DNA of 64,000 nucleotides. Source: Candidatus Nealsonbacteria bacterium (GTDB lineage: Bacteria > Patescibacteriota > Minisyncoccia > Minisyncoccales > JANBVM01). The DNA lies in NCBI GenBank assembly GCA_047456295.1, contig CP179887.1, positions 45,944-109,943 of the forward strand, given 5' to 3'. Position numbers and translations under genes: made by a program. Under the pieces are notes generated by a model. The model did no database searches and was not told the DNA's origin. It was given only the letters and a program-made list of their open reading frames with translations. Numbering within the stretch: the first letter of the stretch is position 1; each line of letters starts with the position of its first letter. Positions 11,759 through 30,022 of this stretch are shown here, piece by piece.

Positions 11759-11760
11759 AG

Positions 11761-11934: not shown

Positions 11935-11942
11935 AATTTTCA

Positions 11943-11966
11943 AGCCCCGCCAAGGCGGGGTTTTGA
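11943..11966 (+). terminator. intrinsic terminator after tRNA-Asp
   Basis: ccccgccaaggcgggg hairpin followed by TTTT. Confidence 0.6.
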
Positions 11967-12461
11967 GTTATATTGGGCAGGTAAGCTATTGACAAAATTA
12001 AAATGGTGTGATATAATTTAAATATGATAGGAAATAAGAAAACTGGAATAAGTGCCGATCGGTTCAAAGAGTTACAAGAATTGGCTGGCAAAATCCAGAA
12101 GATAAAGAAAAACCTGATTAGTCGCAGTCCTCAATTATCAACAGAGGAGGCGGCGCAGGTTGAGAGATTTTTCGAGCCGTTGTTAAAATCTCTTGCCAAA
12201 GTGTTAAATGGTGTTAAAAATAACTAAATCCTATTTTTTTTATTTTTTATTTATTGTTCTTTACAATCAATCCTATTTTTCAAGCCCATAACTTACTTGT
12301 GATTTTGAAAAAGCCCGAAACCACCTTTGAGGTGGTTTTTGGTTTAGGCAGGAAAGTAGTCGAGAAAGCTATCTATTTTCTCCATCATTTCTTCAGGATT
12401 CTCTATAGAATCAAGCCATTCCAGAGTTCGAAAATAGTCTCGTCGTCCCCGCCACAATAAG

Positions 12462-12499
12462 AAATCGCCTTTTAGGTGATTTTTTTGTAGAATAGGAAT
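12462..12499 (+). promoter_or_regulatory. repeat module A: hairpin + T-run + extended -10 + leaderless ATG
   Basis: aatcgcc-tttta-ggtgatt stem, ttttttGTAGAAT, aggaatATG. Confidence 0.5.
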
Positions 12500-13471
12500 A
12501 TGAAAATAATTAACCTCAAAAAGATTTTTTCAAGCATTCTGAAGCCGACTCCGCCTTATAATTTTAATGTAACAATCCATAAGCCGTCGCATTTCCCCTC
12601 GTCTGATAATGAATGGTCAAAAGGGAAATACTGGATAACAATGGTTTGGAGAGGCAAGTATCTGGGATTAAAATTGGAAAATAAGGGAACGGTAAAAAGA
12701 CCAAAGATAAGGTTTAGCGTATATTCAAAAAAGCCCCTATTAAAGTCATATAAGGATAGTTTAATGACAGAAATAGAATGGAGGTTTAATCTGAAGTCGG
12801 ATATTTCAGAATTTGCTAGAAAGTTCAAAAAAGATAAAATTTTAAAACCTTTATTAAAAAAATGGCAAGGAATGAAACCAGTAGCTGCTAATTCGTTATA
12901 TGAAACGCTTGTCATATATATTGTTTTACAGAATGCCGTAGTTCGTCGTTCGGTTCAGATGTTGGAGAATCTTTTTAATAAGTTTGGTAAGAAGGTGAGA
13001 TTTGACAACAAAACCCTTTCTACTTTTTGGGAGCCAAAAGCTATAAATAAAGTTTCAGAGCAAACATTAAGAGATTTAAAGTTAGGTTACAGAGCTAAAT
13101 TCTTAAAGAAAATCAGTTTACAGTTCGTCAAAGGAAAGATTGATGAATTTAAAATGAGAAAGATGGAGAGAGAAGAGTTAAAAAAGAAAGCATTAAAACT
13201 TTACGGAATTGGACCTGCTTCTGTAGAGTATCTTTTATTTGAGGATTTTTATCATTACAATGCCTTAGAAACTATTCCTCCCTGGGAACAGAAAATAATG
13301 TCTAAGTTGTTATTTAACAAGAAGTTAGTTTCTACTAAAAAAATCTTAAACTTCTTCAGAAAAAGATATTCAGGATGGGAGAAATTAGCCTTTCACTATA
13401 TCTGGGAAGATATCTTCTGGAAAAGAAAAACCCAGAAAATAGATTGGTTGGAAAAAGAAATCCGACTATAA
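12500..13471 (+). CDS. AlkA-like HhH-GPD DNA glycosylase
   Basis: HhH-GPD motif LYGIGPASVEYLLF near C-terminus; AlkA-N-like N-terminal domain. Confidence 0.65.
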   Translation: MKIINLKKIFSSILKPTPPYNFNVTIHKPSHFPSSDNEWSKGKYWITMVWRGKYLGLKLENKGTVKRPKIRFSVYSKKPLLKSYKDSLMTEIEWRFNLKSDISEFARKFKKDKILKPLLKKWQGMKPVAANSLYETLVIYIVLQNAVVRRSVQMLENLFNKFGKKVRFDNKTLSTFWEPKAINKVSEQTLRDLKLGYRAKFLKKISLQFVKGKIDEFKMRKMEREELKKKALKLYGIGPASVEYLLFEDFYHYNALETIPPWEQKIMSKLLFNKKLVSTKKILNFFRKRYSGWEKLAFHYIWEDIFWKRKTQKIDWLEKEIRL

Positions 13472-13508
13472 AATCGCCAAGCAGGCAGTTTCTTGGTAGG
13501 ATGGAAAT
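13470..13508 (+). promoter_or_regulatory. repeat module B (degenerate)
   Basis: aaatcgccaagcaggcagtttcttgGTAGGATggaaatATG. Confidence 0.4.
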
Positions 13509-13922
13509 ATGAAAAAAATCTTATTTGTCTATTTAGGTAATGTTGCCAGAAGCCAGATGGCTGAGGCATATTATAATCATTTTACAAATTCCAACAATGC
13601 AACAAGTGCTGGCATTTTAGATTTTACTCCAGTAAGATACGGTTATCCTATAAAAGAAGTTGTTCGGGCGATGAAAGAAGAAAGTATAGACGTATCCAAA
13701 AATAAAGTCAAAACCATAACAAGAGAGATGGTAAAAGAAAATGATAAGATTTTTGTTATGTGTAAGAAAGAAGAATGTCCTAACTTTCTATTGAATTCTG
13801 GTAAAGTTACTTTTTGGAATGTTGGTGACCCTTTTGATACAGATTTAGAAAATTTCAGAAGAATTAGGGATAAAATTAGGGGGAAAGTAGAACAACTGAT
13901 TACAGAAAAAAGAATTAATTAA
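13509..13922 (+). CDS. LMW-PTP/ArsC-fold protein with catalytic Cys replaced (predicted inactive)
   Basis: P-loop region ILFVYLGNVARSQMAEA aligns with CTGNICRS; both Cys replaced (Y, A), Arg retained. Confidence 0.6.
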   Translation: MKKILFVYLGNVARSQMAEAYYNHFTNSNNATSAGILDFTPVRYGYPIKEVVRAMKEESIDVSKNKVKTITREMVKENDKIFVMCKKEECPNFLLNSGKVTFWNVGDPFDTDLENFRRIRDKIRGKVEQLITEKRIN

Positions 13923-14191
13923 TATTTAATCATTCAATTATTGCGATACGCGGAAAATTATTCCAAAACCAAGTTTTAATTATATCCAACCATCCCCGCC
14001 AAATTGTAATTCAAAGAATCAAGGTTCTGAGGAGCGGTAGCGACGAATGGTTCTTATAAAATTGGATGTAATTAGATATAATTCGAGCTTTTTGTTCGGA
14101 TTTTTTTCACAAAATTACACAAAATTAGTTTGATATTTTTTTAAAATTTGTTACACTAAATTTAGGCCTCCTCGAATTTAGTGAAAATTTT

Positions 14192-14764
14192 ATGAAACAA
14201 AAAGAAGTATTATTTATTACGGGCAATAAAAGTAAATTAGCTGAGACAACTAAGATGGCTGAAAGATTCTCAGTAAAGATAGTAGGGCAAAAAGCTAATT
14301 TATTTGAGCCAATGGTATCCGATTCTACTAAAATCTTAATTGACAAAGCAAAGGATGCATATAAAAAGTTTGGTAAGCCTTTAATCGTTGATGATGCTGG
14401 TATTTACTTTGGAGCTTATCCTAATTTTCCTGGTGTATTCACGAAATTTATTATTAAGTTGCTTGGTTTTAATGGAATCATTAAGTTATTAGAAGGAAAA
14501 AGCAAAGACGCTTACTTCAAGTGCACAATTGGTTTTATTGACGAAAAGTTAGACCAGCCTCTTTTATTTGAAGGTATATCTAAGGGGAAAATAACCGAGA
14601 AAATTTCGATAAACTTCAATGGAAATTTCGAATTTAATAGTATTTTTATTCCTGAGGGAGAAAGTAAAACTTTTTCAGAAATGTCAATTGAGGAACGTAG
14701 TAAACACTGTCATAGAGATAGAGCGTTAGAGAAATTTTTAAGTTGGTATGTTAAAGAATATTAG
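14192..14764 (+). CDS. Ham1/RdgB-family non-canonical purine NTP pyrophosphatase
   Basis: FITGNKSKLAE N-terminal motif and C-terminal SKHCHRDRAL motif. Confidence 0.75.
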   Translation: MKQKEVLFITGNKSKLAETTKMAERFSVKIVGQKANLFEPMVSDSTKILIDKAKDAYKKFGKPLIVDDAGIYFGAYPNFPGVFTKFIIKLLGFNGIIKLLEGKSKDAYFKCTIGFIDEKLDQPLLFEGISKGKITEKISINFNGNFEFNSIFIPEGESKTFSEMSIEERSKHCHRDRALEKFLSWYVKEY

Positions 14765-14769
14765 TAAAA

Positions 14770-15396
14770 ATGAAATATATTAAAAAGGAAACAATTGGGG
14801 CGAGTTGGTTAAAAGCAGTAGAGGTGGTTATGGAAGAAGGAAACGATTTTTATGATCGCGATGTTAAGATAAAGGAGTTACTTGATCTTTTCATTGAGAT
14901 AAAAGATGCTCTTCTAATTGACGACGTGATAAAGAAACATGGAGATAAGTATATGATAGAACAACTAAAAATAGTTTTATTGGATACAAAACCAGGTGAG
15001 TGGGGGTGGAGTTATGGACAAAGGTTGTTTGGAGATAGTAACTATTTTAACCAAATAGAATTTATTGTAAATAAATTAAAGAGGAAACCGGAAACAAAAT
15101 CAGCTACCGTAACTTGTTTATTTCCTAAGGAGGATTTTCAGAAGGGAGCTCACATTCCATGTATTTGTCTTTTGGATTTTAAAATTAGAGATAATAGGTT
15201 GAACATGAGTGTTTGTTTAAGAAGCCAAGATATTGCTAAAAAGATGTATGGGGATGCGCTTGCTTTAGGTAAACTCATGGAAAAAGTAGCTAACGAATTA
15301 GATGTCTTGACGGGTAATCTTAAACTGTACATTATGTCGGCTCATATTTATGAAAACGAGTTTGAGAAAATGAGAAAAATAATAGGAAACTCTTAA
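14770..15396 (+). CDS. thymidylate-synthase-fold enzyme, short methanogen-type (paralog A)
   Basis: AHIPCICLLDF...LNMSVCLRSQD...SAHIYENEF: catalytic Cys and RSQD / HIYxN TS motifs; 208 aa. Confidence 0.7.
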   Translation: MKYIKKETIGASWLKAVEVVMEEGNDFYDRDVKIKELLDLFIEIKDALLIDDVIKKHGDKYMIEQLKIVLLDTKPGEWGWSYGQRLFGDSNYFNQIEFIVNKLKRKPETKSATVTCLFPKEDFQKGAHIPCICLLDFKIRDNRLNMSVCLRSQDIAKKMYGDALALGKLMEKVANELDVLTGNLKLYIMSAHIYENEFEKMRKIIGNS

Positions 15397-15582
15397 AATA
15401 AATAAATTCACCATAAACATTCTGATAGTGATAAGCTTACTATAATAAGTTTATTTTTTTTATTGTTGAGCAATCCTGAAATAATATGGGTCTTGATAAT
15501 TCAAAGAAATACTGTATTATATGAATAGCTATAAGATATATTTCCAATAGCAAAGTTCTTTATAACTTAAAAGAGGTGAAAT

Positions 15583-16152
15583 GAGATAAAAGTTATATAT
15601 GTAGGAGGAGTTAAGGGTGTTGGTAAAACCTTTGTCCTTCGTGAGGTCTTTAGGCAACTATCTTTAGAAAAAGTGCCTTTTAAGAAGGCAAAAGTTGCAA
15701 AAGTTATGTTTGATCTATTAAAAAGATACGGTATGGTTGAGAAGTATGATGAGTTAGAAAATATTAGTGTCGAAATAAAAGATTGTATTCGCAAAGAATC
15801 TTTCAAAAAAATACTGAAAGATAAAAATGAAAATTTGATTTTCGATGGCCATTATTCAATATCGTCACAGTTTGGTTATGAGTATGGAATTCCATTGAAT
15901 TTTATAAAAGAAATTGATCACTTAGTATTATTATATAACAATGAAGATGTTGTTCGCAGGAGAAGGTTAGAAGATAAATCTAAAAAAAGAGAGACAAGTT
16001 TAGAGAAAGTAATAATAGACTTAATAATAGAGGAAGCGTTTGCTGAGTTTTATGCGAGATTACGGGGTAGAAAGTTAAAGAAGATAGAAACTAATAATAA
16101 AGCCAGTGTCAGTTTAAAAGATTTTATAAAGGAGGTGTTTGAAAGTGGTTAG
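15583..16152 (+). CDS. P-loop nucleotide/nucleoside kinase-like protein (start uncertain)
   Basis: in-frame upstream extension encodes Walker A VIYVGGVKGVGKTF but has no ATG/GTG/TTG before it; ORF-track start 15673 is a GTG. Confidence 0.5.
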   Translation, partial: EIKVIYVGGVKGVGKTFVLREVFRQLSLEKVPFKKAKVAKVMFDLLKRYGMVEKYDELENISVEIKDCIRKESFKKILKDKNENLIFDGHYSISSQFGYEYGIPLNFIKEIDHLVLLYNNEDVVRRRRLEDKSKKRETSLEKVIIDLIIEEAFAEFYARLRGRKLKKIETNNKASVSLKDFIKEVFESG

Positions 16153-16789
16153 ATTAATAGAAGCAGATAATATTTCAGAAGCATGGTTAAAGGGATGTGA
16201 ATGTATTATAAATTACGGCTTTAGAACGAAAAGAAAAATCAAACTCCATAATTTGATTGCTGAGATTAAAAATATAACTCTAGATAAATACATAGATGAG
16301 CAATTTAGAAATTATATGAATCTAAGAATATTCAAGCGAACATTGGATATCGTTTCTTCAGATCAAAACCTCAATTCACATCCTAATTATTGGAGACGCT
16401 TGAAAGGAAAGGAAGAATTTAAGATAGACCAAGTGGCCCGCGTTATTTCCAGACTTAGAAAGCAGCCTCATTCAACCAAGCTTACCTTATGTATTTACAG
16501 CCCTAACGATTTCAAAAAGATGTATACACCTTGTATTTTATGTGCTGAATTAAGAGTGAATAAGAGGCGTCTTAATATGACCGCTTTTATCAGAAGTCAA
16601 GATTTCGCAAATAAAAGTTATGCTGATTATATAGGTTTATCATCTATTCTTAAACGAATTGGAGAGAATAGTAACATAAAACCAGGAGCAATTCTTACTC
16701 ATACTATAACCGCATTTATTGCCTATAAAGACCTAAGCCGAATGAAATCCTTTTTAAATATCATAAGGGAAAAGAAAATATCAAATTAG
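16139..16789 (+). CDS. thymidylate-synthase-fold enzyme (paralog B, divergent C-terminal motif)
   Basis: YTPCILCAELRVNKRRLNMTAFIRSQD; C-terminal THTITAFIAY replaces HIYEN. Confidence 0.65.
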   Translation: MKVVRLIEADNISEAWLKGCECIINYGFRTKRKIKLHNLIAEIKNITLDKYIDEQFRNYMNLRIFKRTLDIVSSDQNLNSHPNYWRRLKGKEEFKIDQVARVISRLRKQPHSTKLTLCIYSPNDFKKMYTPCILCAELRVNKRRLNMTAFIRSQDFANKSYADYIGLSSILKRIGENSNIKPGAILTHTITAFIAYKDLSRMKSFLNIIREKKISN

Positions 16790-16892
16790 TTATATGCACC
16801 AGCACCAGTTTATAATGTAAACTTATAAACTGGATTTTTTATATAAGCTAAGAAATACAATAGTACTTATATGAAGGAGAAAAAGACAATAA

Positions 16893-17105
16893 ATTCATCC
16901 AGGTTTTAGTTAAAGATTCAGACATAGGTTTGGACAGGAAAGACAAAAACAATCTTTTTAAGCTCTTCCATAGGGGAGAAAAAGCCACTTCTTTGTATCT
17001 TAACGGCTTAGGTTTAGGGCTCTTTATTGTTAAAAACCTGATCGAATTCCACAAGGGCGCGGTTAAAACTAAAAGCGAGGAGGGGAGAGAAGTACCTTTA
17101 TCATA
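16893..17105 (+). pseudogene. histidine kinase HATPase_c C-terminal fragment
   Basis: translation DSDIGLDRKDKNNLFKLFHRGEKATSLYLNGLGLGLFIVKNLIEFHKGAVKTKSEEG (G2 box GLGLGL) with no upstream HisKA in frame. Confidence 0.6.
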
Positions 17106-17189
17106 AAAATACCTTTCATGGTAGAGGTTTAAGAGGATAATCCTTCCAGAATTCATTTCTAACCATGCTTAACCATTCTCGTCACACTA

Positions 17190-17228
17190 AGTCGCATTTG
17201 AAGTGATTTTTTGATAGAATCGAAATAT
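17190..17228 (+). promoter_or_regulatory. repeat module C
   Basis: gtcgcatttgaagtgatttttTGATAGAATcgaaatATG; this ATG opens only a 15-codon ORF overlapping the rlmN start. Confidence 0.45.
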
Positions 17229-17254
17229 GAAAAAAGATTTAAGATTATCAAGAT

Positions 17255-18250
17255 ATGGATTTAGCTCTTCTTAAAAAAATTCTTGTAAAAGAACCATCTT
17301 TTCGTTTAAGGCAAGCGAAAAGAGCTATATTTAGAGACTTGATTGAAGATTGGTCAGGAGTTACAACCTTCCCTTTGTCTTTACGAGAAAAATTGAAAGA
17401 AAAATATCCTTTAAAAATTCAAGCTAAAACTTTTACCTCTAGAGACAAAAGAACAGTCAAAGCTGTTATTAATTTAAAAGACAATTTGAAAATTGAAACA
17501 GTTTTAATGCGCCATAAGAATAAGAGAAATACTGTTTGTGTTTCATCTCAGGTTGGCTGTGCTTTAGGTTGTATCTTTTGTGCTACTGGAAAGGCTGGTT
17601 TCAAAAGAAATCTTGAGGCTTTTGAAATTGTAGAACAGGTTTTATTTTTTGCTCGTTATTTAAAAAAAGAGAAACAAAAGATTACCAATATTGTCTTTAT
17701 GGGAATGGGAGAACCTTTTTTAAATTATGATAGTGTTTTGAACGCTATTAAAGTCCTAAACGATAAAGAAGGATTTAATTTGGGAGCAAGACGATTTTCA
17801 ATCTCTACTGTAGGAATTATAGAGGGTATTAAAAAATTGGCTGAAGAAAAACTTGAAGTGAATTTGGCAATTTCTCTTCATGCACCTGATGATACCCTGC
17901 GTTCAAAAATTATACCAATTAATAGAAAATATCCTCTTTCAAAAGTTTTAAAAGCAGTTGATGAGTATATTAAAAAGACTCGGCGTAGAGTAATGTTTGA
18001 ATACATAATGATAAAAGGATTAAATGATTCAGATGAGTATGCGAAAAAATTAGCAGAATTAATGAAGAAAAGAGAGCTTTCTTTTGTGAACCTTATTTCT
18101 TACAATCCCACAGGAATTTTTAAACCCTCTCTGAGTACAAGAATAAAAAAATTCAAAGATATTTTAGAAAAAGCAGGAATAGCCGTTACTCAGAGATATC
18201 GTTTTGGACAAGATATTAAGGGGGCTTGTGGTCAGCTAGCAGCTAAATAA
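17255..18250 (+). CDS. rlmN: 23S rRNA/tRNA m2A radical-SAM methyltransferase
   Basis: CVSSQVGCALGCIFCATG radical SAM motif, 331 aa. Confidence 0.85.
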   Translation: MDLALLKKILVKEPSFRLRQAKRAIFRDLIEDWSGVTTFPLSLREKLKEKYPLKIQAKTFTSRDKRTVKAVINLKDNLKIETVLMRHKNKRNTVCVSSQVGCALGCIFCATGKAGFKRNLEAFEIVEQVLFFARYLKKEKQKITNIVFMGMGEPFLNYDSVLNAIKVLNDKEGFNLGARRFSISTVGIIEGIKKLAEEKLEVNLAISLHAPDDTLRSKIIPINRKYPLSKVLKAVDEYIKKTRRRVMFEYIMIKGLNDSDEYAKKLAELMKKRELSFVNLISYNPTGIFKPSLSTRIKKFKDILEKAGIAVTQRYRFGQDIKGACGQLAAK

Positions 18251-18715
18251 GTTTATTAATTAAAGATCAGATTAACCAATAAAAAAATCAAAAATCTGAC
18301 CAAGAGATATAGAGATAACTAATACTGCTAATTTTAGTCTTTCTGAAGAGTTTTTTTCTTAAGACCATAAGACAGTTTTTGTTTAGGTGGCTGACTTCAT
18401 CGTCCATCCGTTATTATAAGTAATTTATCAGGTTTTTTTCAAAATCCACCTAACTAAAATTCTAAAATCGTTTCGTAGTCCCCGAATACCACTGCCCAGC
18501 GGGGACATTTTTGTTTTAAGTTGTTGAATAATTCTCCCAAAACCAATTTCCAATACATTTAATTCTCTCTCTTTTCGTAAGTTAAAGTTGGTTTTGGTAG
18601 GTGGGGACCTTAAAAATACCAAATAATGGGTATTTTTCATCTTAATTTATTATTTTTTATTCACACCCTTGAGCTTGATTTTACCTTAATTTTAAGCTAA
18701 AATGAATATGAGATT

Positions 18716-19768
18716 ATGGCAAAAATTGACCTGAAAACCATCAAGAATAAGGCTGGAAAAGAGATTAAAAAGAGCCAGACCTTAAAGGAATTGGATAGGG
18801 TTTTTAAGAGATATCTGGGAAAAAAAGGGGATCTTTCCTGGATTTTGCGTTCTTTAAACAAGATGCCAAAAACAAAAAGGATAAAGATGGGGAAAAAGGC
18901 AAATCAGCTTAAAGAGTTTTTAGAAGAAGCGATTGCCAAAAAGAGTGGGGAAATCAGAAAAAAAACAAAGAAATCATTAGAGGGGACAGAATGGTTTGAC
19001 ATTACCATTCCTGGAAAGAAACCTGTTTCCGGTCACTTACATCCTTTAACCCAGGCAAAGAAAAAAGCCGAAGAGATTTTTCAATCAATGGGTTTTTCAA
19101 TAGCTGAAGGTCCAGAACTTGAAAGTGAATGGTATAACTTTGATGCCTTAAACTTTCCCTCAGAACATCCAGCTAGAGAGATGCAGGATACCTTGTTTAT
19201 AAAACAAAAGAATAGAGAAAGATTACCTAGTACAGCTAAGCTTTTAATGAGAACTCACACTTCTCCGGTTCAGATTCGTTATATCAAAGAAAATCAGCCT
19301 CCTCTAAGAATTATTATTCCAGGCAGGGTCTTTAGACATGAAGCCACCGATGTTTCCCATGAGATTAATTTCTATCACGTGGAAGGGTTGATGGTTGATA
19401 AGAAAATCTCGGTAGCAAATTTTAAAGCCATAATAAAGGAGTTTTTAAAAAGATTCTTTGAAAAAGAGCTTAAGATTCGTCTCCGTCCCAGTTATTTTCC
19501 TTTTACCGAACCTTCTTTTGAGATTGACTTTTCCTGCCCCATGTGTGGAGGAAAAGGATGTTCTATTTGTAAAAAAAGAGGGTGGTTGGAGATTATGGGA
19601 GCAGGAATGGTTCATCCTAATGTGTTTAAGAATGCTGGTTTGAACCCTAAAAACTGGCAGGGTTTTGCCTTTGGAATGGGATTAGACAGATTAACAATGA
19701 TGAAATACAAAATAAGCGATATTAGATTATTTTACGGAGGGGACTTGAGATTTTTAATCCAATTCTAA
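18716..19768 (+). CDS. pheS: phenylalanyl-tRNA synthetase alpha subunit
   Basis: FRHEATDVSHEINFYHVEG class II core. Confidence 0.9.
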   Translation: MAKIDLKTIKNKAGKEIKKSQTLKELDRVFKRYLGKKGDLSWILRSLNKMPKTKRIKMGKKANQLKEFLEEAIAKKSGEIRKKTKKSLEGTEWFDITIPGKKPVSGHLHPLTQAKKKAEEIFQSMGFSIAEGPELESEWYNFDALNFPSEHPAREMQDTLFIKQKNRERLPSTAKLLMRTHTSPVQIRYIKENQPPLRIIIPGRVFRHEATDVSHEINFYHVEGLMVDKKISVANFKAIIKEFLKRFFEKELKIRLRPSYFPFTEPSFEIDFSCPMCGGKGCSICKKRGWLEIMGAGMVHPNVFKNAGLNPKNWQGFAFGMGLDRLTMMKYKISDIRLFYGGDLRFLIQF

Positions 19769-19777
19769 TTCATTAAC

Positions 19778-21808: not shown

Positions 21809-21859
21809 GTTTTAATTTTAATAAAGGCAGGCTTTTTTATTTCAACCAATAGTAAAAAA

Positions 21860-24800
21860 ATGAAGAAGAAAAAAATTAAAAAGAGAAAAAAAACTAAATT
21901 AACATATACGGCAAAGGACATTTATGTGCTGCACGGTTTGGAACCCATCAGAAAAAGACCGGGAATGTATATTGGTTCAACCGGACCTGAAGGATTGCAT
22001 CATTTAATCAGGGAGTGCGTGGGAAACAGTATTGACGAAGCCATCATGGGTTATTGTAACGATATTAAGGTTTTTCTTTTGCCTGGAGACAGGATTAAGA
22101 TTGAAGACAATGGAAGGGGTATTCCTGTAGACAAGCATCCTCAGACCAAAAAATCAGCTTTGGAGACCGTAATGACCACCTTACATGCCGGAGCTAAGTT
22201 CGGAGGAAAGGTGTATGTTTCTACAGGTGGCTTGCACGGAATTGGTGTTTCCGTGGTTTGTGCCCTGTCAAGATATATGAAAGCCGAGGTTTGTCGGGAA
22301 GGCTTCAGGTATTCCCAGGAATATTCAAAGGGAAAAGTAAAAACAAAATTGAAGAAAATCGGAAGATGTAAGGACAGGGGAACGATTATTACTTTTGAAC
22401 CTGATCCTGAAATCTTTAAAGACATAAAGTTTAATAAAAAGAAGATCATAAATTATCTCCGTCAGCAGGCTTACCTGACCAAGGGCTTGAGGATTACCTT
22501 AATAGACAAAACAGTAAAGCCCAATACCACTTATAGTTTTTATTTTGAAGGAGGGATAGTTTCTTACGTTAAGTATTTAACTCAAGGCCGTAGTCTCCTT
22601 CACCGGAATACTTTTTATTGTTTTGAGGAAAAAGATGGAATCTTGGTTGAGACTGCTTTTGTTTATACCGATGAATATGAATGTTATGAAGATGCCTTTG
22701 CCAATAATATTCACACTGCTGAAGGAGGGACCCATTTGACAGGTTTCAGGAGCGCTTTAACCAGGACATTCAATGATTATGCCAGGAGGAATGAATTTTT
22801 AAAAGAAAACAGCACTAATTTCAGCGGTCAGGATACCAGAGAGGGTTTGACAGCAGTGGTTTCCATTAAAATAAGAGATCCCCAGTTTGAGGGTCAGACC
22901 AAGTCAAAGTTAGGGAATTCTGAAGCCAAGACAGTGGTTGAACACGTGGTGGGCAAGACCCTGACAGATTTCTTGGAGAGAAACCCTACTGATGCCAAGG
23001 AAATAATCCAGAGATTCATTTTAGCCCAGAAAGCAAGGAAGGCTGCTAAAGCTGCCAAAGATATTATTTTGCGAAAGAGGCTTTTAGATGGTTTAGCCCT
23101 GCCTGGAAAACTGGCTGATTGTTCTTCTAAAAACGCAGAAGAATCAGAATTATATATAGTTGAAGGCGAGTCTGCTGGAGGAAGTAGCAGGCAGGCCAGG
23201 GACCGTCACTTCCAAGCCATTCTGCCTCTTCGGGGTAAAATCCTGAATGTGGAAAGAGCCCGTCTCGATAAAATCCTTTCTTCAAAAGAAATAAAATCCT
23301 TAGTCATAGCTTTAGGTACTGCTATTGCTGAAGATTTTAATATTGAAAAAGTCAGGTATCATCGAATTATCATAATGTGTGATGCAGATAGCATAACAGG
23401 TGATACTCCTATTTTTCTTTATAACAAAGAAAAGCAAGAATTTTTCTTAAGTAAAGTAGGGGAATTTATTGAAAACTGTGATGATACCAGTGAATATATG
23501 GTCTTGACCTACAATCAAAAAAATGGGAAGCGAGAATTAAAAGAAATTCGTCAGACAATAAAGCATCCCTTAAGGACTCCACTTTACGAGATAAAAACCT
23601 ATTGCGGTTATCCTATCAAGGTAACCTCTTGTCATAGTGTTTATGTTTTTGAAAATGGAAAGGTGATAACTAAAAAGGGTGATGAGGTTAAAAAAGGAGA
23701 TTTACTCGTTTTTCCCAAAACCTTTCCTCGTCAGAACAAAGAATATATTATGTCTCTGAAAGATGTAATTTTGAATTCGGATTTTAGAAATATCTCTGTG
23801 AAGGTTCCCCAGGATTATGTAAAAGAAATACCATTAAGGGCCTGGTGTGAATTGGATTCCCCTTTATGGAATAGACTTCAGAAAAAAAGAGAATTAGCCA
23901 GGGTTTCTCGGCGAGTAATGGGAGAATCAATTGGGATTTATGATAGGGTTATTCAGCAATGGGAACAAAAGATTGATAACGTAATGCCCAGATTCTGTCA
24001 ATTTCAAAAGTATCTGAATCAACTTGAAATAGATAATAAGAATTTAAATTACAATATTTATATTCCCTTAAAAGATTGGAAAGATAAGAATATTTCAAGA
24101 GAAACTCCATTGTATTATGGAAATCATTCTCGGATTTTAAGAACAAGGTTTGAATTAAATGATGATCTCGCTTATTTACTTGGTTTTTATTTAGGAGATG
24201 GTTGTGCTTGTCCAGAGAAAAATAGTCCAAATAGATTTTCGATTTCTTTAAACAAAGACAAGTCAGAAAAATATCTTGAGAGACTTTCTCGAATAATAAA
24301 AGAGAAATTCAATGCAAAAGCTATTTTAAACCACCGTAAAACCAATGATATCCAACTTTATTTCCATTCGTTTGAGTTTAAATTACTCTTAATAAAACTG
24401 GGTCTCTTAGGAAAGAAATGTAATGAAAAGTTTATTCCTGATATTTTCTTTAATGTTAAAAGAGAAATTCAGGAGGATTTACTTGAAGGGTTGCTCCATA
24501 GTGACGGGTTTATTACGGTCTGGCCAAAAGGTAAAGCAAAGAAAGCAATTTATGGGTGGAGATTGTCTTCCCAAAGACTGATTCAGGGAATTCTTACCAT
24601 TTTTAGGCAGTGGGGAATATTTCCAGCATACACTGTCTGTCAGACCAAGGATCATTTCAGAAGAGATGGAAAGATTATTCGTTCTAATTTTAAATCTTAC
24701 GATTTATCAATTTCTACTGTTGAATATTTACTTAAAACTGAGAAGGTTTGGACTGGACATAAAGATGCTCAAAAATTAAAGAATTATCTAAAGAAAGTGG

Positions 24801-25378
24801 ATTACAAAAAAGTCATTGGCAAGTACATAAAACCCATTTCTCAAGACTTCGTTGGGTTAAAGGTAAAAAAAATTAAAAAGTTAAAAAATACAGATGAATT
24901 TGTTTATGATTTTTCAGTTCAGGGAGACCAAAATTTTATAGCCGGGACAGGTGGAGTATTATTGCATAATTCTGATGGTAATCACATTAAAGCCCTGCTC
25001 TTGACTTTATTTTACCGTTACTTTAAACCTTTAATTGAGAAGGGTTATCTGTATATTGCCCAGCCTCCTCTTTATAAAATTCAAGCCGGGAAAGAGATTC
25101 AATTCGCTTATACCGAGAATCAGAAATTAAATATCTTAAAGTCAATGAAAAAAAGAGTTGGTATTTCTATTCAAAGATACAAGGGTTTAGGAGAGATGAA
25201 TGCAGGAGAGTTATGGGAAACAACCATGGATCCTGAAAATAGGATTTTACTTCAGGTCACTATTGAAGATGCCAGGGAGGCAGATAAGATTTTTGACACC
25301 TTGATGGGAAAGGAAGTTTCATCAAGAAAGAAGTTTATTCAAACCTATGCAAAAAAGGTGAAGAATCTTGATATTTAA
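21860..25378 (+). CDS. gyrB: DNA gyrase subunit B, interrupted by intein
   Basis: GHKL ATPase N-terminus; Toprim ELYIVEGESAGGS...QAILPLRGKILNV; extein RIIIMCDAD|...|SDGNHIKALLLTLFYRY around a 527-aa insert. Confidence 0.9.
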   Translation: MKKKKIKKRKKTKLTYTAKDIYVLHGLEPIRKRPGMYIGSTGPEGLHHLIRECVGNSIDEAIMGYCNDIKVFLLPGDRIKIEDNGRGIPVDKHPQTKKSALETVMTTLHAGAKFGGKVYVSTGGLHGIGVSVVCALSRYMKAEVCREGFRYSQEYSKGKVKTKLKKIGRCKDRGTIITFEPDPEIFKDIKFNKKKIINYLRQQAYLTKGLRITLIDKTVKPNTTYSFYFEGGIVSYVKYLTQGRSLLHRNTFYCFEEKDGILVETAFVYTDEYECYEDAFANNIHTAEGGTHLTGFRSALTRTFNDYARRNEFLKENSTNFSGQDTREGLTAVVSIKIRDPQFEGQTKSKLGNSEAKTVVEHVVGKTLTDFLERNPTDAKEIIQRFILAQKARKAAKAAKDIILRKRLLDGLALPGKLADCSSKNAEESELYIVEGESAGGSSRQARDRHFQAILPLRGKILNVERARLDKILSSKEIKSLVIALGTAIAEDFNIEKVRYHRIIIMCDADSITGDTPIFLYNKEKQEFFLSKVGEFIENCDDTSEYMVLTYNQKNGKRELKEIRQTIKHPLRTPLYEIKTYCGYPIKVTSCHSVYVFENGKVITKKGDEVKKGDLLVFPKTFPRQNKEYIMSLKDVILNSDFRNISVKVPQDYVKEIPLRAWCELDSPLWNRLQKKRELARVSRRVMGESIGIYDRVIQQWEQKIDNVMPRFCQFQKYLNQLEIDNKNLNYNIYIPLKDWKDKNISRETPLYYGNHSRILRTRFELNDDLAYLLGFYLGDGCACPEKNSPNRFSISLNKDKSEKYLERLSRIIKEKFNAKAILNHRKTNDIQLYFHSFEFKLLLIKLGLLGKKCNEKFIPDIFFNVKREIQEDLLEGLLHSDGFITVWPKGKAKKAIYGWRLSSQRLIQGILTIFRQWGIFPAYTVCQTKDHFRRDGKIIRSNFKSYDLSISTVEYLLKTEKVWTGHKDAQKLKNYLKKVDYKKVIGKYIKPISQDFVGLKVKKIKKLKNTDEFVYDFSVQGDQNFIAGTGGVLLHNSDGNHIKALLLTLFYRYFKPLIEKGYLYIAQPPLYKIQAGKEIQFAYTENQKLNILKSMKKRVGISIQRYKGLGEMNAGELWETTMDPENRILLQVTIEDAREADKIFDTLMGKEVSSRKKFIQTYAKKVKNLDI
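23390..24970 (+). mobile_element. GyrB intein (Ser1...His-Asn, +1 Ser) with LAGLIDADG homing endonuclease domain
   Basis: block A SITGDTPIF; LAGLIDADG-like LLGFYLGDGCA and LLEGLLHSDGF; terminal VLLHN followed by S; 1581 nt in frame. Confidence 0.8.
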
Positions 25379-25393
25379 CATTGAAAAAATAAT

Positions 25394-25594
25394 ATGAATT
25401 TTAAAAATATTCCCATAAAAATTAATACCTTTTTTAAAGAAATCAAGGTAGAGATTAGGAAGGTTAATTGGCCAACAAGAAAGGAAACCATAAGAGATAC
25501 CTTGATTGTCATCGGGGTTTCAATAGTAGTTGCCATATTTTTAGGTGGAATAGATTTTCTCTTTACCACCTTATTAAATAGATTTATACTTTAG
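25394..25594 (+). CDS. secE: preprotein translocase subunit SecE
   Basis: 66 aa, KVNWPTRKE motif and C-terminal TM. Confidence 0.8.
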   Translation: MNFKNIPIKINTFFKEIKVEIRKVNWPTRKETIRDTLIVIGVSIVVAIFLGGIDFLFTTLLNRFIL

Positions 25595-25598
25595 AAAT

Positions 25599-26144
25599 AT
25601 GCCAAAGCAAAAAATAATCCAAAAGAGAAGCTGGTATGTGCTCCATACCTATTCAGGGTATGAAGAATCTGTGGCCAAGAATTTAAGACAAAGGATTGAG
25701 TCTTTGGGTATGGAAGATAAAATCTTTAATGTTATTGTTCCCAAGGAAAAAAAGATAAAGATTAAAGCAGGCAAGAGAAAGGTGATTGAAGAAAAGATTT
25801 ATCCAGGTTATGTGCTGGTGGAAATGATTGTTACAGATGATTCCTGGTATGTTGTCAGGAATACCCCTAACGTTACTGGTTTTATCGGGGCTGGTACCAT
25901 TCCTATTCCGGTTTCAGAAAAAGAGATTAATGACCTGAAAAAGAGGATGGAGGTGAAAGAGCCCCAGTACAAGATTAAGGTTAAAATTGGTGATTTGGTA
26001 AAGATTACAGATGGTCCTTTTAAGGATTTTGAAGGCAAGGTTTCTGAGATTGATGAAGAAAAGGGGAAGATAAAGGTCTTGGTAAATATATTTGGAAGAG
26101 ACACGCCTGTTGAGTTAGATTCCCTCCAGGCCAAGAAGCTTTAA
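25599..26144 (+). CDS. nusG: transcription antitermination factor NusG
   Basis: [14 protein letters not shown] domain and KOW motif [15 protein letters not shown]. Confidence 0.9.
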
Positions 26145-26170
26145 TATTAAACCTATCTAATGACAAGATT

Positions 26171-26593
26171 ATGGCAAAAAAAATAAAAGCCGTCATAAAA
26201 TTACAGATTCCAGGAGGTAAAGCTACTCCTGCACCTCCTGTAGGGCCTTCTTTGGCCCAGCATGGATTAAATATTGCTGAATTCTGCAAGAAGTTTAATG
26301 ATGCAACCCAGAATCAGCAGGGAGCTAAGATTCCTGTAGTGGTTACCATATATGAGGACAAGAGTTATACCTTTAAGACAAAGCAACCCTTGATCTCTGA
26401 TTTATTGAAAAAAGCAGCTGGTATTGAGAAGGGTTCAGGAGAGCCTAACAGAAAAAAGGTGGGCAAGATTACAAAAGAACAGCTAAGAAAGATAGCTGAA
26501 CAAAAGATAGCTGATTTAAATACCGAAGACATAGAAAAAGCAATGAAGATTATACAGGCTACAGCTAAAAACATGGGAATAGAAGTTCAATAA
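26171..26593 (+). CDS. rplK: 50S ribosomal protein L11
   Basis: [24 protein letters not shown] signature. Confidence 0.9.
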
Positions 26594-26602
26594 ACAATCT
26601 CT

Positions 26603-27082
26603 ATGTTAAATTCAAGAATCAATTTGAAAATAGCAGTAATTATCCTTGGCATTGCCATAATAGGAGCATTAATTTTAATTCAGAATGAGTATTCTTTAAC
26701 CAAAAAAGAGATAGATGATTTGATTGAAAATCAGTTTGTTGATTTCCAGTATCAGAAAAGAAAAGCTGTTCAGGAAGAAACAGTATATATCATTAATAAG
26801 GGAAATGAGGACGTGCTCTACTATGAAATAGTGCCTTCTGAAGACTCAACTGTCTTTTCCTTGCTGGAGGAGTTAAGCCAGAGAGAGAATTTTGAGCTAG
26901 AATCAACCTTATATGAGGGAATGGGCGTATTTGTTGAAAGTATTGATGGTCTCAGGAATGGAACCCAAGATAAATATTGGCAATACTGGGTTAATAATGA
27001 ATTGCCCCAGGTTGCTGCAGATAAAATGCAGATTAAGAAAAATGATGTTATTGAGTGGAGATTTGAGGCTTCTACTTTTTAG
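26603..27082 (+). CDS. membrane-anchored DUF4430-like protein (family linked to cobalamin-binding/uptake loci)
   Basis: N-terminal TM; C-terminal YWQYWVNNELPQVAADKMQIKKNDVIEWRF resembles DUF4430 signature (from memory). Confidence 0.5.
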   Translation: MLNSRINLKIAVIILGIAIIGALILIQNEYSLTKKEIDDLIENQFVDFQYQKRKAVQEETVYIINKGNEDVLYYEIVPSEDSTVFSLLEELSQRENFELESTLYEGMGVFVESIDGLRNGTQDKYWQYWVNNELPQVAADKMQIKKNDVIEWRFEASTF

Positions 27083-27108
27083 TACGTATTTAACAATCCA
27101 TAAATTAA

Positions 27109-27678
27109 ATGGACTATAAAAAGCTTTTTTTTACTATTTTAATTATCATCTTCGGAGTTATTTTTCGCATTTTTTTGAATGAAACAATAGGTATTCCTAA
27201 TTTTGAAGCAGTAACTGCTTTATCTTTGCTTTCAGGGGTGTTTGTGGGAGGTGTTTACAGTATTTTAATTCCCCTTTCCATCATGTTTTTTTCTGACCTT
27301 TATTTTGGCAATACCTTTATTTATCTTTTTACCTGGTCAGCCTTTGTCTTGATTGGAATTTCTGGTAATATATTCAAGAGGGATTCTAAACATTATTTGC
27401 TTAAAATTACAGGTTCAGGAGTTTTGTCTGTTTTATTTTTTTATTTGTGGACGAATCTTGGCTGGTGGCTGATTTCTGGGATGTATCCCATGAGTTTTTC
27501 AGGTTTGATTCAATGTTATATTGCTGCCCTTGCTTTTTTAAAGAATCAACTTATTTCCGTGATTCTTTTTGTTCCTGGTTTCAATGTTATTTTTTCTTTT
27601 CTTATTGATAAGGTTTTTTCTTCTTCTCAAAAGGTAAAAAAGCATGGAACCTTTATTTTACCCGAAATTAATCATTAA
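27109..27678 (+). CDS. polytopic membrane protein (possible S-component-like transporter)
   Basis: ~6 predicted TM helices, 189 aa. Confidence 0.45.
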   Translation: MDYKKLFFTILIIIFGVIFRIFLNETIGIPNFEAVTALSLLSGVFVGGVYSILIPLSIMFFSDLYFGNTFIYLFTWSAFVLIGISGNIFKRDSKHYLLKITGSGVLSVLFFYLWTNLGWWLISGMYPMSFSGLIQCYIAALAFLKNQLISVILFVPGFNVIFSFLIDKVFSSSQKVKKHGTFILPEINH

Positions 27679-27699
27679 GATTATATTATTTTAATTTAT

Positions 27700-28266
27700 A
27701 TGATTCTTTCTGACAGAGACATCAAAAAATATATTAAAATGGGTAAGATTAAAATAAATCCCGAACCTGATTTTAAAAAACAGTTAGGTTCAGCTTCTTT
27801 AGATTTAAGACTGGGAAATGAATTCAGGGTTTTTAACCACGTAAAAAAACCGTTTATTGATACCAAAGATCCAAAGACTTTTAAGAATATAACCCATTTG
27901 ATAAAGATAAAAGATAAAGAACCTTTTGTTTTCCAGCCAGGCCAATTTATTTTAGGGGTGACCTTAGAGGAGATTTCTCTGCCCGATGGCGTGGCAGCCA
28001 GGGTTGATGGAAGGAGCAGCATTGGAAGACTGGGAATTGTTGTTCATTCCACTGCCGGACATGTTGATGCCGGATTTAGGGGAAGAATTAATCTTGAGAT
28101 GGAGAATATTGGAATGATGCCCGTTCTTTTGTATCCTGGAACAAGGATCTGCCAGTTGGTTTTTGAATTGCTTTCTTCACCAGCTGAGATTCCTTATTAC
28201 AAAAAGAAAGGGGCAAAATATTTAGGAACAAAATCCCCGGAAGAAAGCAAGCTTGAAAAAATATGA
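27700..28266 (+). CDS. dcd: dCTP deaminase (dUTPase superfamily)
   Basis: MILSDRDIKKYI...SASLDLRLG...GRSSIGRLG motifs. Confidence 0.85.
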   Translation: MILSDRDIKKYIKMGKIKINPEPDFKKQLGSASLDLRLGNEFRVFNHVKKPFIDTKDPKTFKNITHLIKIKDKEPFVFQPGQFILGVTLEEISLPDGVAARVDGRSSIGRLGIVVHSTAGHVDAGFRGRINLEMENIGMMPVLLYPGTRICQLVFELLSSPAEIPYYKKKGAKYLGTKSPEESKLEKI

Positions 28267-29093
28267 ATGATTGGCCCAAGGTAGAAGGAAGATATAAAGT
28301 GGGAAACAAGACCTCTCCCATTGCTGTTTGTACCAATGCCAGTATTGATGACATAGAGATTGACCTTAAAAAAATAGCAATTATTGGAAAGTGTGTTACA
28401 GAGAACATTGGCATTGAAAAGATAATCCAGAATATAGTTTCCAATCCTAATATAAGGTATTTGATTCTTTGCGGAAAGAAATCAAAGGGTCATTTTATCT
28501 CCCAGGCAATTGAATCTTTAAAGAAAAATGGCATTGACCAAGATAAGAGAATCATTGGAGCTGCAGGCAACATGCCTTATTTAAGAAATATTGATGAAGA
28601 ATTAATTGAAAGGTTCAGGAAACAGGTAGAAATAATCAATATGGCAGGGGAGACCAACAGCCAAAAAATTGAAACAATGGTAGATAAATTATTAGAAGGA
28701 AAAACAGAGGAGTTTAAAGGTGAAGCTGTTCAAATTAAAAAAACAGAGGAGATTGAAGCTAAACCAGCAAAATGGATTGCTGACCCTAAAGGTTATTTTG
28801 TAATATCCCTTAACAATGAAAGAACTAAGATTATGGTTGATCATTATATAAAAGGGGAGATCAACAAAAGAATTATTGGCAAGAATGCCAAGGAAATCTG
28901 TGATACCATTGCCAGATTAAAACTCATAGGAGAGTTTGAACAGTCTTTGGAGCATTCCATGTATTTGGGAAGAGAACTTGAAAAAGCAGAAATAGCCTTA
29001 AGGGAAAACCTTGATTTTGAACAGGACAAGGAATTAAAAATTAAAAAGCTTAAAAAACAAGAGCCAACCAATGAATACGGTTGGTTTGATTAA
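28263..29093 (+). CDS. MtrA-like (cobamide-binding methyltransferase subunit A homolog) protein
   Basis: SPIAVCTNAS...TENIGIEKIIQNIVSNPNIRYLILCGKKSKGHFISQA...NGIDQDKRIIGAAGNMPYL...RFRKQVEI recalled as MtrA-family signature; start overlaps dcd stop by 4 nt. Confidence 0.5.
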   Translation: MNDWPKVEGRYKVGNKTSPIAVCTNASIDDIEIDLKKIAIIGKCVTENIGIEKIIQNIVSNPNIRYLILCGKKSKGHFISQAIESLKKNGIDQDKRIIGAAGNMPYLRNIDEELIERFRKQVEIINMAGETNSQKIETMVDKLLEGKTEEFKGEAVQIKKTEEIEAKPAKWIADPKGYFVISLNNERTKIMVDHYIKGEINKRIIGKNAKEICDTIARLKLIGEFEQSLEHSMYLGRELEKAEIALRENLDFEQDKELKIKKLKKQEPTNEYGWFD

Positions 29094-29871
29094 AAATATG
29101 TATCAAACAAGAATAATTGCAGCTAAAAATTTAGGTCAGGCATGGGAAAGAGCCTGTATCTTAATAATGAAAGAAGGACATAATCGTTATGTTCAGGCCC
29201 CTGAATATAAAATTGAAACAAGGGATTTGCCTTTGATGATAAAGGTGTCAGAACCTTTTTCAGAGCCAAGACTTTCTTTGAAATCCAATGTTAAAAAAGA
29301 ACAGGCTGATGACTATTCCAAAAAACTGCTTTTTGGGAGCGGAAAAGAAAAAGAAAACAGTTTTGATTATACCTATTTTTCTCGGCTTCGTTGTTATCCT
29401 GATTGCCGGGTGAGGGCTTTTTTGCCCAGTATTACAGAATCAAAAGAAGAACTGGAACAGGAGGTAAGAAAGGTTTCTCCTGACGGTAAATGTCTGGTTG
29501 AGAGAATTGACCAGGTGGAAAAAGCAATTAAGATTTTAAAGAAAGATCCAACCCGTCGGACAGTTGTTCTTCATACCTGGATTCCTTACAGGGATTTGAT
29601 GAAATTTGGACCTAAGAGAGAAGACACCTCTTCTCCCTGCGTGGTTTTGGTTTATCCTCAACTGGTTGATGGGAAATTGCACATGTTTATTGTAATGAAA
29701 ACCAATGATTTATATAATGCCTGGCCTGAGAATGCCTATGCCCTTACCAATCTCCAGAAACATATAGCTGATGAATTGGGGGTTGAAACTGGAACCTATA
29801 CCCATTTTTCTGTGAGTATGCATATTTATAAAGACATGTTTGAGGAAGTAAAAAGGAAATTTAATCTTTAA
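29071..29871 (+). CDS. thymidylate-synthase-fold enzyme (paralog C, N-terminally extended)
   Basis: SSPCVVLVYP...FIVMKTNDLYNAWPEN...SVSMHIYKD; overlaps upstream ORF by 23 nt. Confidence 0.7.
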   Translation: MNTVGLIKNMYQTRIIAAKNLGQAWERACILIMKEGHNRYVQAPEYKIETRDLPLMIKVSEPFSEPRLSLKSNVKKEQADDYSKKLLFGSGKEKENSFDYTYFSRLRCYPDCRVRAFLPSITESKEELEQEVRKVSPDGKCLVERIDQVEKAIKILKKDPTRRTVVLHTWIPYRDLMKFGPKREDTSSPCVVLVYPQLVDGKLHMFIVMKTNDLYNAWPENAYALTNLQKHIADELGVETGTYTHFSVSMHIYKDMFEEVKRKFNL

Positions 29872-29917
29872 GAATAAAAAACTTAATATTAGGGAATTAA
29901 GTTTTAGGAGTTCGAAT

Positions 29918-29940
29918 CTCGTCGTCCCCACCATTTCGGG
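29918..29940 (+). repeat. tRNA-Asp 3'-end copy (T-arm + acceptor + CCA)
   Basis: ggagttcgaatctcgtcgtccccacca vs tRNA-Asp gcgagttcgagtctcgtcgtccccg. Confidence 0.7.
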
Positions 29941-29942
29941 CC

Positions 29943-29972
29943 CGAGCATTTGGCTCGGGTTTTAGGTTTGAC
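29943..29972 (+). terminator. intrinsic terminator
   Basis: cccgagc-attt-gctcggg hairpin followed by TTTT. Confidence 0.6.
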
Positions 29973-30022
29973 AAAAACTAAAAGATGGGGTAAAAGTAGA
30001 TAGATTAAAATTACAATTAAAA

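Follow-up and report, generated by a model that had tools for sequence, protein, structure and literature searches.

The window analysed here, a stretch of 64,000 nucleotides from Candidatus Nealsonbacteria (Minisyncoccales), a bacterium of the candidate phyla radiation (CPR), carries an intact tRNA-Asp gene upstream of pheST and, scattered downstream of it, partial copies of the 3' end of this gene. We consider it probable that these fragments are displaced tRNA-Asp 3' ends, and that the tRNA-Asp end upstream of pheST is a preferred landing site, likely in events of a tyrosine recombinase. The sequence-only reading of this DNA had proposed serial site-specific integration at a tRNA attachment (att) site. 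This proposal gains from the same-strand 3' fragments that start in the T arm, from the variable downstream DNA, and from pairs of empty and occupied sites in relatives, but an integrase was not found in the window, and the genes between the fragments are of housekeeping type. The loci of the relatives, which carry L numbers in the following, were retrieved by PheT, and the PheT of the best relatives is about 72% identical to that of the window.

The intact tRNA-Asp (GTC) gene is placed at 11861-11934 (+) by Rfam and at 11860-11935 by ARAGORN, and both find it in a cluster of tRNA-Met, tRNA-Met and tRNA-Asp at 11689-11934. Its last base is G11934, CCA is not encoded, and the 3' flank GAATTTTCAAGCCCC and a terminator stem at 11945-11960 follow. 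CCA is encoded by the tRNA-Trp gene of the window (51299-51301), but not by tRNA-Asp (11934-11937), and in relatives the tRNA-Asp 3' end is either GCCA or GC with an A-rich tail. Copy 1 spans 12424-12454 (+) and is a tRNA-Asp 3' fragment from the T stem to G73 (12424-12451) with CCA (12452-12454); in its sequence, GAGTTCGA(aaata)GTCTCGTCGTCCCCG-CCA, the T loop is longer by a 5-nt insertion, and the last 15 nt are exact. Copy 3 spans 29908-29933 (+), from the T stem to position 73, which is A for G (29908-29930), and CCA occupies 29931-29933; its sequence is GAGTTCGAaTCTCGTCGTCCCCa-CCA, downstream of which lie a 10-bp hairpin and a T run. In the 98.6% identical strain L036, copy 3 reads GAGTTCGAGTCTCGTCGTCCCCACCA and agrees with the intact gene at all 22 positions 5' of the discriminator. 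The similarity to the tRNA begins in the T arm (5' strand of the T stem) in copy 1, copy 3 and a further copy in the relative L143, at starts no more than two bases apart, and the left flanks beyond this start are unrelated. The fragments are 3' parts only and lie on the same strand as tRNA-Asp. A tRNA-like fragment at 56086 begins at the T loop, and those found in L152, L023 (from tRNA-Met2), L021 and L022 begin in or beside the T loop.

Three partial copies had been listed in the sequence-only reading, and formal scoring places copies 1 and 3 far above chance but leaves copy 2 weak. The 15-mer GTCTCGTCGTCCCCG occurs exactly at 12437-12451 and with two mismatches at 18470-18484 and 29916-29930, and 100 dinucleotide-preserving shuffles gave no match with two or fewer mismatches. 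When 16-mers of all six tRNAs of the window were scanned on both strands, runs of off-target matches appeared with the tRNA-Asp 3' end only, and the other five tRNAs gave isolated single matches. Local alignment with a query of 30 nt (from T arm to 3' end, plus 4 nt) scored 30 for the gene itself, 20 for copy 3, 17 for copy 1 and 14 for copy 2; T arms of real tRNAs reached 12, and the background at best 11. Assemblies independent of the window reproduce the copies (L038 is 100% identical over 11730-19675, and L035, L036 and L037 span copy 3), and the copies are thus not an assembly artefact. We are certain that copies 1 and 3 are genuine and far above chance.

Copy 2 (18470-18487, +; GTtTCGTaGTCCCCGAAT / GTTTCGTAGTCCCCGAAT) is a 16/18 match that includes an AAT flank. 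As a 16-mer it has three mismatches, for which about 0.5 chance matches are expected by calculation; as an 18-mer, 0.00 matches are expected, but this 18-mer was picked after the match had been seen. Its GTCCCCG is the 5' arm of a hairpin at 18478-18506 with a subsequent T run, 210 nt upstream of PheS. It is plausible that copy 2 is a tRNA-Asp remnant, but on sequence alone this is not secure. Two further remnants had escaped the sequence-only reading. A short tRNA-Asp 3' remnant at 13988-14001 (+; aaccATCCCCGCCA) is followed by an array of the octamer AATTGNAT (14058-14083) and a hairpin (14082-14100), and this whole unit at 13988-14100 recurs in L044, L045, L142 and L153. A degenerate remnant at 17178-17191 (+; CTCGTCacactaag / CTCGTCACACTAAG), directly 5' of the third copy of a repeat termed module A, equals copy 1 plus flank of strain L039 (Logan DRR463592, 98.8% identical) minus 9 nt.

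A tRNA-like fold was not found for the fragments: their minimum-free-energy folds give flanking terminators only, and the 5' acceptor partner is absent. Rfam scans of 11-31 kb and 55-61 kb yielded just three tRNAs and no match for the fragments. A tmRNA (transfer-messenger RNA) match at 29779-29933 with 11.7 bits was due only to the tRNA-like end and was discarded. Copy 3 with its A73 and CCA was also considered as a tmRNA end, but position 70 is C and not the U of the G3:U70 pair, and ARAGORN found no tmRNA. A peptide likeness on the minus strand across fragment regions (LE[IL]GFG, FRT..W) came without a full-length homologue and was taken as nucleotide repeat similarity. Searches of viral contigs with the tRNA end plus CCA gave nothing but phage tRNA-Asp genes and unrelated prophage att sites of high GC content, in none of which the discriminator is A, and an attL-type junction was not found in these contigs either.

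The relatives reveal what kind of place the tRNA-Asp end is. More than 20 genomes share the backbone GatA-orf171-tRNAMet-tRNAMet-tRNAAsp-VAR1-PheS-PheT-GyrB-SecE-NusG-L11-VAR2-Tmk-DeoC-GatB, in which VAR1 is the interval from tRNA-Asp to PheS and VAR2 the interval from L11 to Tmk. As the sequence-only reading had led one to expect, the gene content around the copies varies, with a VAR1 of about 0.1 to 7.5 kb and genes that differ in almost every genome: L007 has about 0.1 kb, L150 and L151, with tRNA-Asp directly before pheS, have about 0.2 kb, the window has 6.8 kb, and L011 has 7.5 kb. VAR1 is variable in more than 30 relatives, in which the backbone from GatA to Tmk is conserved, its content is almost never common to two genomes, and its genes in relatives include pyrD/E/F, ATP-binding cassette (ABC) transporter, DegV, nitroreductase, ClpP, NDK, RNase T and DUF2779 genes. 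VAR2 is variable among relatives as well. L002 represents an empty site (GTCGTCCCCGC-AATTGNAT array-hairpin-hydrolase gene), and L044 has the tRNA, array, hairpin and hydrolase as in L002, but 4.7 kb are inserted exactly between the tRNA end and this native flank. The insert (4252-8945 in L044) is a restriction-modification/HEPN defence island with a TaqI-like endonuclease, a LexA-fused N6/N4 methylase and a HEPN protein, and a 7-nt direct repeat, TCCCCGC, bounds it. The second pair comes from one species with three complete genomes and an identical orf171, in which VAR1 is empty in L150 and L151 and occupied in L152. The variability of VAR1 and these two pairs of empty and occupied sites identify the tRNA-Asp 3' end as a hot spot of insertion in the Nealsonbacteria lineage. 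Long copies of a genome's own tRNA-Asp end were found only in L021 and L022 among 20 relatives searched; these two contain, after tRNA-Asp, two to three tandem units of about 180 bp (L021 6616-6830, L022 6421-6870), each ending in the last 15 nt plus CCA. The same units also hold a T-arm-like sequence on the minus strand, GGTTCGAGCCC.

In the mechanism that we propose, each insertion would cut tRNA-Asp in or near the T arm and supply a replacement 3' end, so that a complete tRNA-Asp survives, and the old piece from the T arm to CCA would be pushed downstream together with module A and the formerly adjoining gene. The catalyst would most likely be a tyrosine recombinase that uses the T-stem region as att site and that acts in trans or has since been lost; such a gene is absent from the window, and the catalyst is therefore inferred. 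In this genome, the interval after tRNA-Asp now contains a module X1 behind the intact gene, copy 1 with module A and a glycosylase gene, further gene blocks headed by module A, and the decayed copy 2 before pheS. A fragment, once formed, would stay with its neighbouring gene and move along with it in later rearrangements, which would explain why copy 1 occurs in L143 without a tRNA gene in the 10 kb upstream, and why copy 3 is found with an X-type module 18 kb away, between a thymidylate-synthase-like (ThyA-like) gene and tmk. The fragments share the sequence type of the intact gene (22-23 nt identical), which fits a duplication of the att site and not a replacement by an immune allele.

A number of results weigh against this reading. 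In agreement with the sequence-only reading, which had noted no integrase in the window, Pfam scans of its large open reading frames (ORFs) detected no recombinase or transposase domains, and tblastn of the window with the Xer-like recombinase of L009 gave no match; a homologue of the L152-type LAGLIDADG homing endonuclease was not found in the window either. The defence island of L044 and the occupied site of L152 contain no integrase. In L009, an Xer-like tyrosine recombinase gene lies directly after tRNA-Asp in opposite orientation, but its product scores below the XerD cut-off and has no obvious catalytic tyrosine at the C-terminus; having first been taken as a clear island integrase, it was downgraded for its score under the family cut-off, and judging from its sequence it may be a housekeeping or decayed Xer protein. 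A precise empty site for the window's own junctions was not found among the relatives, and a partner tRNA fragment was not found at the other end of module X2, which follows copy 3. Copy 2 is statistically weak. The genes at 12.4-17.3 kb, which had been regarded as an accessory array, are of housekeeping type (glycosylase, RlmN, Ham1, ThyA-like, low-molecular-weight (LMW) phosphatase), and the glycosylase and the phosphatase lie at other loci in relatives, so that this designation is not supported. Lastly, in the comparison of the window with L143, copy 1 is conserved beyond neutral expectation, unlike a neutral scar.

Among the alternatives, we have to consider an allele replacement by homologous recombination or homing, in which a LAGLIDADG gene with a spare tRNA-Asp overwrites the resident gene over its 5' two-thirds, with only the 3' fragment remaining, and co-converts the flanks. 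Such an event was directly observed within one species and is a proven route in the lineage. L150 and L151 have the order tRNAMet-tRNAMet-tRNAAsp-PheS, and in L152 tRNA-Met2 is followed by a LAGLIDADG endonuclease gene, a complete tRNA-Asp of another type (GCGGGTG...), 17 nt, and the fragment TGCGAGTTCGAGTCTCGTCGTCCCCGCCA. The 2.5 kb after this fragment (PheS/PheT) are 90% identical to L150, in comparison to 99-99.7% on either side, and were thus imported into L152. An endonuclease with 48% identity occurs at the same place in L023, where a fragment of tRNA-Met2 from the T loop to the end is found as well, and the hairpin after the L152 fragment resembles that after copy 3 of the window. The free-standing LAGLIDADG gene with a complete tRNA-Asp of different sequence type (L152 10740-11482, L023 4597-5323) looks like a homing cassette that carries its own immune tRNA allele, replaces the resident tRNA-Asp, and co-converts 2.5 kb. 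For the window, however, such a replacement appears unlikely: no homologue of the L152 endonuclease lies near its tRNA, a different tRNA allele would be predicted, whereas the intact tRNA-Asp and the fragments are of the same type, and the cargo of the window lies between the intact gene and the downstream fragments, whereas the cargo of L152 lies upstream of the new gene.

It could also be that copy 1, at least, is a functional cis element that heads a gene unit together with module A; it might be kept as a recombination site, bind a protein or act as an upstream promoter element, or signal an RNA 3' end. L143 is the closest other species as judged from a glycosylase of 86% amino acid identity, and there the glycosylase gene lies downstream of AspRS and a peptidase, and the 10 kb fetched upstream contain no tRNA gene. 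The glycosylase gene is nevertheless preceded by AGTTCGAgAATAGTCTCGTCGTCCCCG and module A, and this copy is identical to copy 1 at 26 of 27 positions, T-loop insertion included. As the insertion is common to both species, the fragment predates their split. The four-fold degenerate sites of the glycosylase gene are only 56% identical between window and L143, and the spacer and the hairpin loop beside the fragment have diverged; the conservation of the fragment against these sites has a calculated P of about 3e-4, with one species pair and 27 nt as its basis, and a gene conversion from the intact tRNA could mimic it. Moreover, pieces resembling tRNA 3' ends precede module A at 56086, 57205 and 59937 of the window and in L142, L148 and L153. 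Against a function, the fragments have neither tRNA-like helices nor an Rfam match, the glycosylase gene lacks the fragment in L146 and is preceded by an intact tRNA-Trp instead in L145, and most of the module A copies of L146 are without such a piece. We regard a cis function of copy 1 as a rather remote explanation. What can be said is that copy 1 is old and moves with its gene, and that it is either constrained or kept uniform by gene conversion; it is not a scar confined to this locus, since the same fragment heads the glycosylase gene in L143. The last alternative, a chance resemblance or convergence of G+C-rich terminator arms with the acceptor strand in an A+T-rich genome, would suit copy 2 taken by itself, with its three mismatches in 16 nt, about 0.5 expected matches, and a GTCCCCG that is a terminator hairpin arm, but it is very improbable overall and refuted for copies 1 and 3 by 23 nt with zero to two differences including the T loop, by 0 of 100 shuffles, and by the fact that no other tRNA behaves alike.

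We return to the reading as displaced tRNA-Asp ends with the modules that adjoin them. Module X1 (11935-12423, +) and module X2 (29934-30573, about 0.65 kb, +), the latter headed by copy 3 and located between a ThyA-like gene and tmk, are collinear and share the order tRNA 3' end, terminator, TTGACA promoter, small ORF, motif of 38-40 nt, terminator. In X1, the promoter is a perfect TTGACA-17-TATAAT (11989-12017), and orf67 (12024-12227), the 38-nt motif TTTTTCAAGCCCATAA..TTTTGAAAAAG (12276-12313) and a terminator (12318-12338) follow. X2 comprises a terminator at about 29937-29963, a TTGACA promoter at 29968, orf115/108 aa at 30044-30370, a 40-nt motif at 30465-30504, and a terminator at 30532-30561. 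The 64 kb contain only three exact copies of the 11-mer TTTTCAAGCCC, one behind the tRNA and one in each of the two X motifs. In L003, the intact tRNA-Asp is followed first by a homologue of orf115, and in L153 an X-type motif and terminator lie between a tRNA-Asp remnant and pheS; the search for orf115 homologues returned a 99% identical copy only. As X-type modules thus ordinarily adjoin tRNA-Asp ends, the idea that X1 is an inserted mini-element of 0.5 kb is weakened. The orthologous ThyA-like gene of L018 (80% identical) adjoins DeoC without an X-type module. In viral contigs, a 15-mer of the X module had 96 matches, none with the full motif, which were taken as chance. Copy 3 with X2 is best read as a 5'-truncated tRNA-Asp end with a native-type downstream module that was relocated into VAR2. 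Copies 2 and 3 enclose PheS, PheT, GyrB, SecE, NusG and L11, which are syntenic in all relatives, and this excludes copy 3 as the distal terminus of a tandem array of islands. L153 also has, at 12900-13060, a 33-nt repeat in four tandem copies (ctgcccacttccttacagaggtgggttaataa), located between a promoter and the X-type motif that precedes pheS.

Module A was first noticed as an element of the supposed array, but it proved to be a stock terminator/promoter unit that is present lineage-wide and normally follows tRNA genes. Its first copy in the window (12462-12506, +) consists of the hairpin AAATCGCC-N4-GGTGATTT, a T run, the -10-like TGTAGAAT and the ATG of the glycosylase gene. The second (13471-13515, +) heads the LMW phosphatase gene, the third (17189-17233, +) lies before RlmN, and these two form the left and right borders of a strain-variable segment of 3.7 kb. 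Further copies are present at 56122-56144, 57232-57254 and 59970-59992. The hairpin and -10 box directly follow the intact tRNA-Asp in L002, L040, L041, L043 and L045 and the intact tRNA-Trp in L145, and L146 has six module A copies within 6 kb, most of them without a tRNA-like piece. The flank of tRNA-Asp in relatives consists of the AATTGNAT array, the hairpin AATCGCC..GGCGGT(6-7) and the -10 box; the last two also follow copy 1, which therefore resembles a former end of the gene, still joined to its native flank and displaced from the present gene. The consensus of module A is A(A/G)TCGC(C/T)-N5-(A/G)GCG(G/A)T(6-7), with the -10-like G(A/G)TA(G/A)AAT and in many cases an ATG no more than about 8 nt away; it was seen in the window, L002, L040-L045 and L142-L146, and the hairpin sequence is kept across species, with compensatory changes. 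An ATG so close may point to leaderless starts. The AATTGNAT octamer forms arrays of three to five units with 10-nt phasing; on one side of them lies the tRNA-Asp end or a TCCCCGC remnant, on the other the module A hairpin. These arrays were found at 7058-7096 in L002, after tRNA-Asp in L040, L041, L043, L045 and L150, at 8920-8950, 9640-9670 and 11130-11165 in L044, and at 14058-14083 in the window. Kept in several species, they could be protein-binding arrays, curved DNA or upstream promoter elements.

The gene turnover inside VAR1 is ongoing at the strain level. L039 lacks 13518-17206, i.e., 3.7 kb with the LMW phosphatase, Ham1, ThyA-like 1, a kinase and ThyA-like 2, and the junction lies inside AAATATGAAAAAA, which is common to two module A copies, and not at the tRNA fragments; its contig ends 10 nt before copy 2. 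The 3-methyladenine glycosylase of the HhH-GPD family (12500-13471, +) is a conserved Nealsonbacteria protein with 3346 homologues and 70-86% identity in many Nealsonbacteria, and its gene has a different neighbourhood in each of five species examined; the LMW phosphatase gene (13509-13922) is likewise found at other loci in relatives. The radical-SAM protein RlmN (17255-18250) scores above its family cut-off. The G+C content does not break sharply across the intervals (0.30-0.41 in 1-kb windows).

Further pieces that resemble tRNA 3' ends lie in intergenic regions at 56086-56108, 57186-57231, 58835-58925 and 59937-59964, three of them directly 5' of module A copies. One of these reads GTTCGAGTCCTACTACCGGAGCA and may be an Asn-type end, and another is an entire T-arm-like hairpin with a 2-nt insertion in the loop. 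A repeated element of about 42 nt, CCCCCGGAG..CTCGGTTCRAG.GACCGAGAC, occurs at 57186 and 58853. Rfam has no match for these pieces at 56-60 kb. Other observations concern the genes of the region. There are three paralogous genes of archaeal thymidylate-synthase type (TIGR03283-like, below cut-off) at 14770-15396, 16139-16789 and within 27700-29871, one of which is clustered with a dCTP deaminase and an MtrA-like pterin-binding (DUF4346) gene next to tmk; the paralogues and the cluster suggest an unusual thymidylate or modified-nucleotide pathway. The GyrB of the window (21860-25378) has 1172 aa with a large intein that contains a LAGLIDADG domain, and the GyrB proteins of L150-L153 are intein-less with 641-653 aa. 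Strain L036 has at 6873-8096 an extra gene for a 407-aa DUF559/MTES_1575 protein (Vsr-like endonuclease fold) between DeoC and GatB that is absent at 31877-31884 of the window.

Displaced tRNA fragments are a standard marker of integrative elements, and to read them in this way is textbook knowledge. To our knowledge, mobile elements and their integration sites are little documented in CPR-type lineages; the present data document a tRNA-Asp/pheS insertion hot spot across such a lineage, with clean pairs of empty and occupied sites. The hot spot accumulates largely the lineage's own housekeeping genes, which bears on the scrambling of gene order in very small symbiont genomes. Beyond the textbook case, one fragment is conserved above the neutral rate and travels with its gene. 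A far-reaching generalization, which we offer as a speculation with little likelihood, would be that in Nealsonbacteria, and perhaps in other CPR bacteria with small genomes, tRNA-targeted site-specific recombination reshuffles gene order. Housekeeping genes would be moved as units headed by a tRNA 3' fragment and a terminator/promoter module, the tRNA-like heads would be maintained recombination sites and not decaying scars, and the integrase would act in trans on T arms as sites, in a loosely integron-like manner. If this were general, the fragments could be used as markers of a cassette-like gene movement, and might even be its sites.

A comparison with known systems helps to place these findings. 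Integrase-less integrative elements that are cis-mobilisable or decayed are known as cis-mobilisable elements (CIMEs), and short stretches of 0.14-0.7 kb (X1, X2, the L023 insert, and the 180-bp units of L021 and L022) resemble such remnants in being bounded by tRNA 3' repeats and in lacking a recombinase; they differ in that a helper element or integrase was not identified here, and in that X2 has a single tRNA-like end. SegB of phage T4 exemplifies a free-standing homing endonuclease whose gene lies beside tRNA genes. The LAGLIDADG gene of L152 and L023 is similar in its location in the tRNA cluster, the co-conversion of flanks, and the leftover tRNA fragment; in contrast, none is found near the tRNA of the window, and in L152 and L023 the gene travels with a complete spare tRNA-Asp of another type. 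Integron cassette arrays also consist of a row of single genes, and here each is headed by a hairpin-containing repeat, with a block lost between two such units in L039, but there is no IntI, attI or attC architecture, and module A has its own -10 box and occurs genome-wide and after tRNA genes. With the chromosomal gene-turnover hot spots (Oliveira et al., 2017, PMC5635113), the region shares the concentration of gene gain and loss in one interval between core genes; here, however, the turnover includes relocated conserved genes of the lineage itself, in a genome of about 0.69 Mb. A further likeness is to the tRNA gene (tDNA) islands and prophages of the Islander type, where displaced tDNA fragments mark the island ends and start at the anticodon loop or in the T-stem region, 3760 of 3919 islands leave a 3' fragment, and att sites in the T-stem region form the commonest class (PMC4383910; Williams, 2002, as cited there). 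As in these islands, an intact tRNA gene is accompanied by cognate fragments in the same orientation that reach from the T arm to the 3' end (copies 1 and 3), the downstream genes are variable, and relatives have empty and occupied sites. The intervals differ in being without an integrase and in carrying housekeeping cargo instead of phage or conjugation genes; one fragment is found on the far side of essential syntenic genes, one is kept with its neighbour gene at another locus in L143, and, in contrast to a tandem island array at one tDNA, the fragments are present without integrases of their own. In conclusion, the tRNA-Asp ends of this window are a known kind of scar, most likely displaced tRNA ends at a hot spot of insertion, but host and cargo are unusual.

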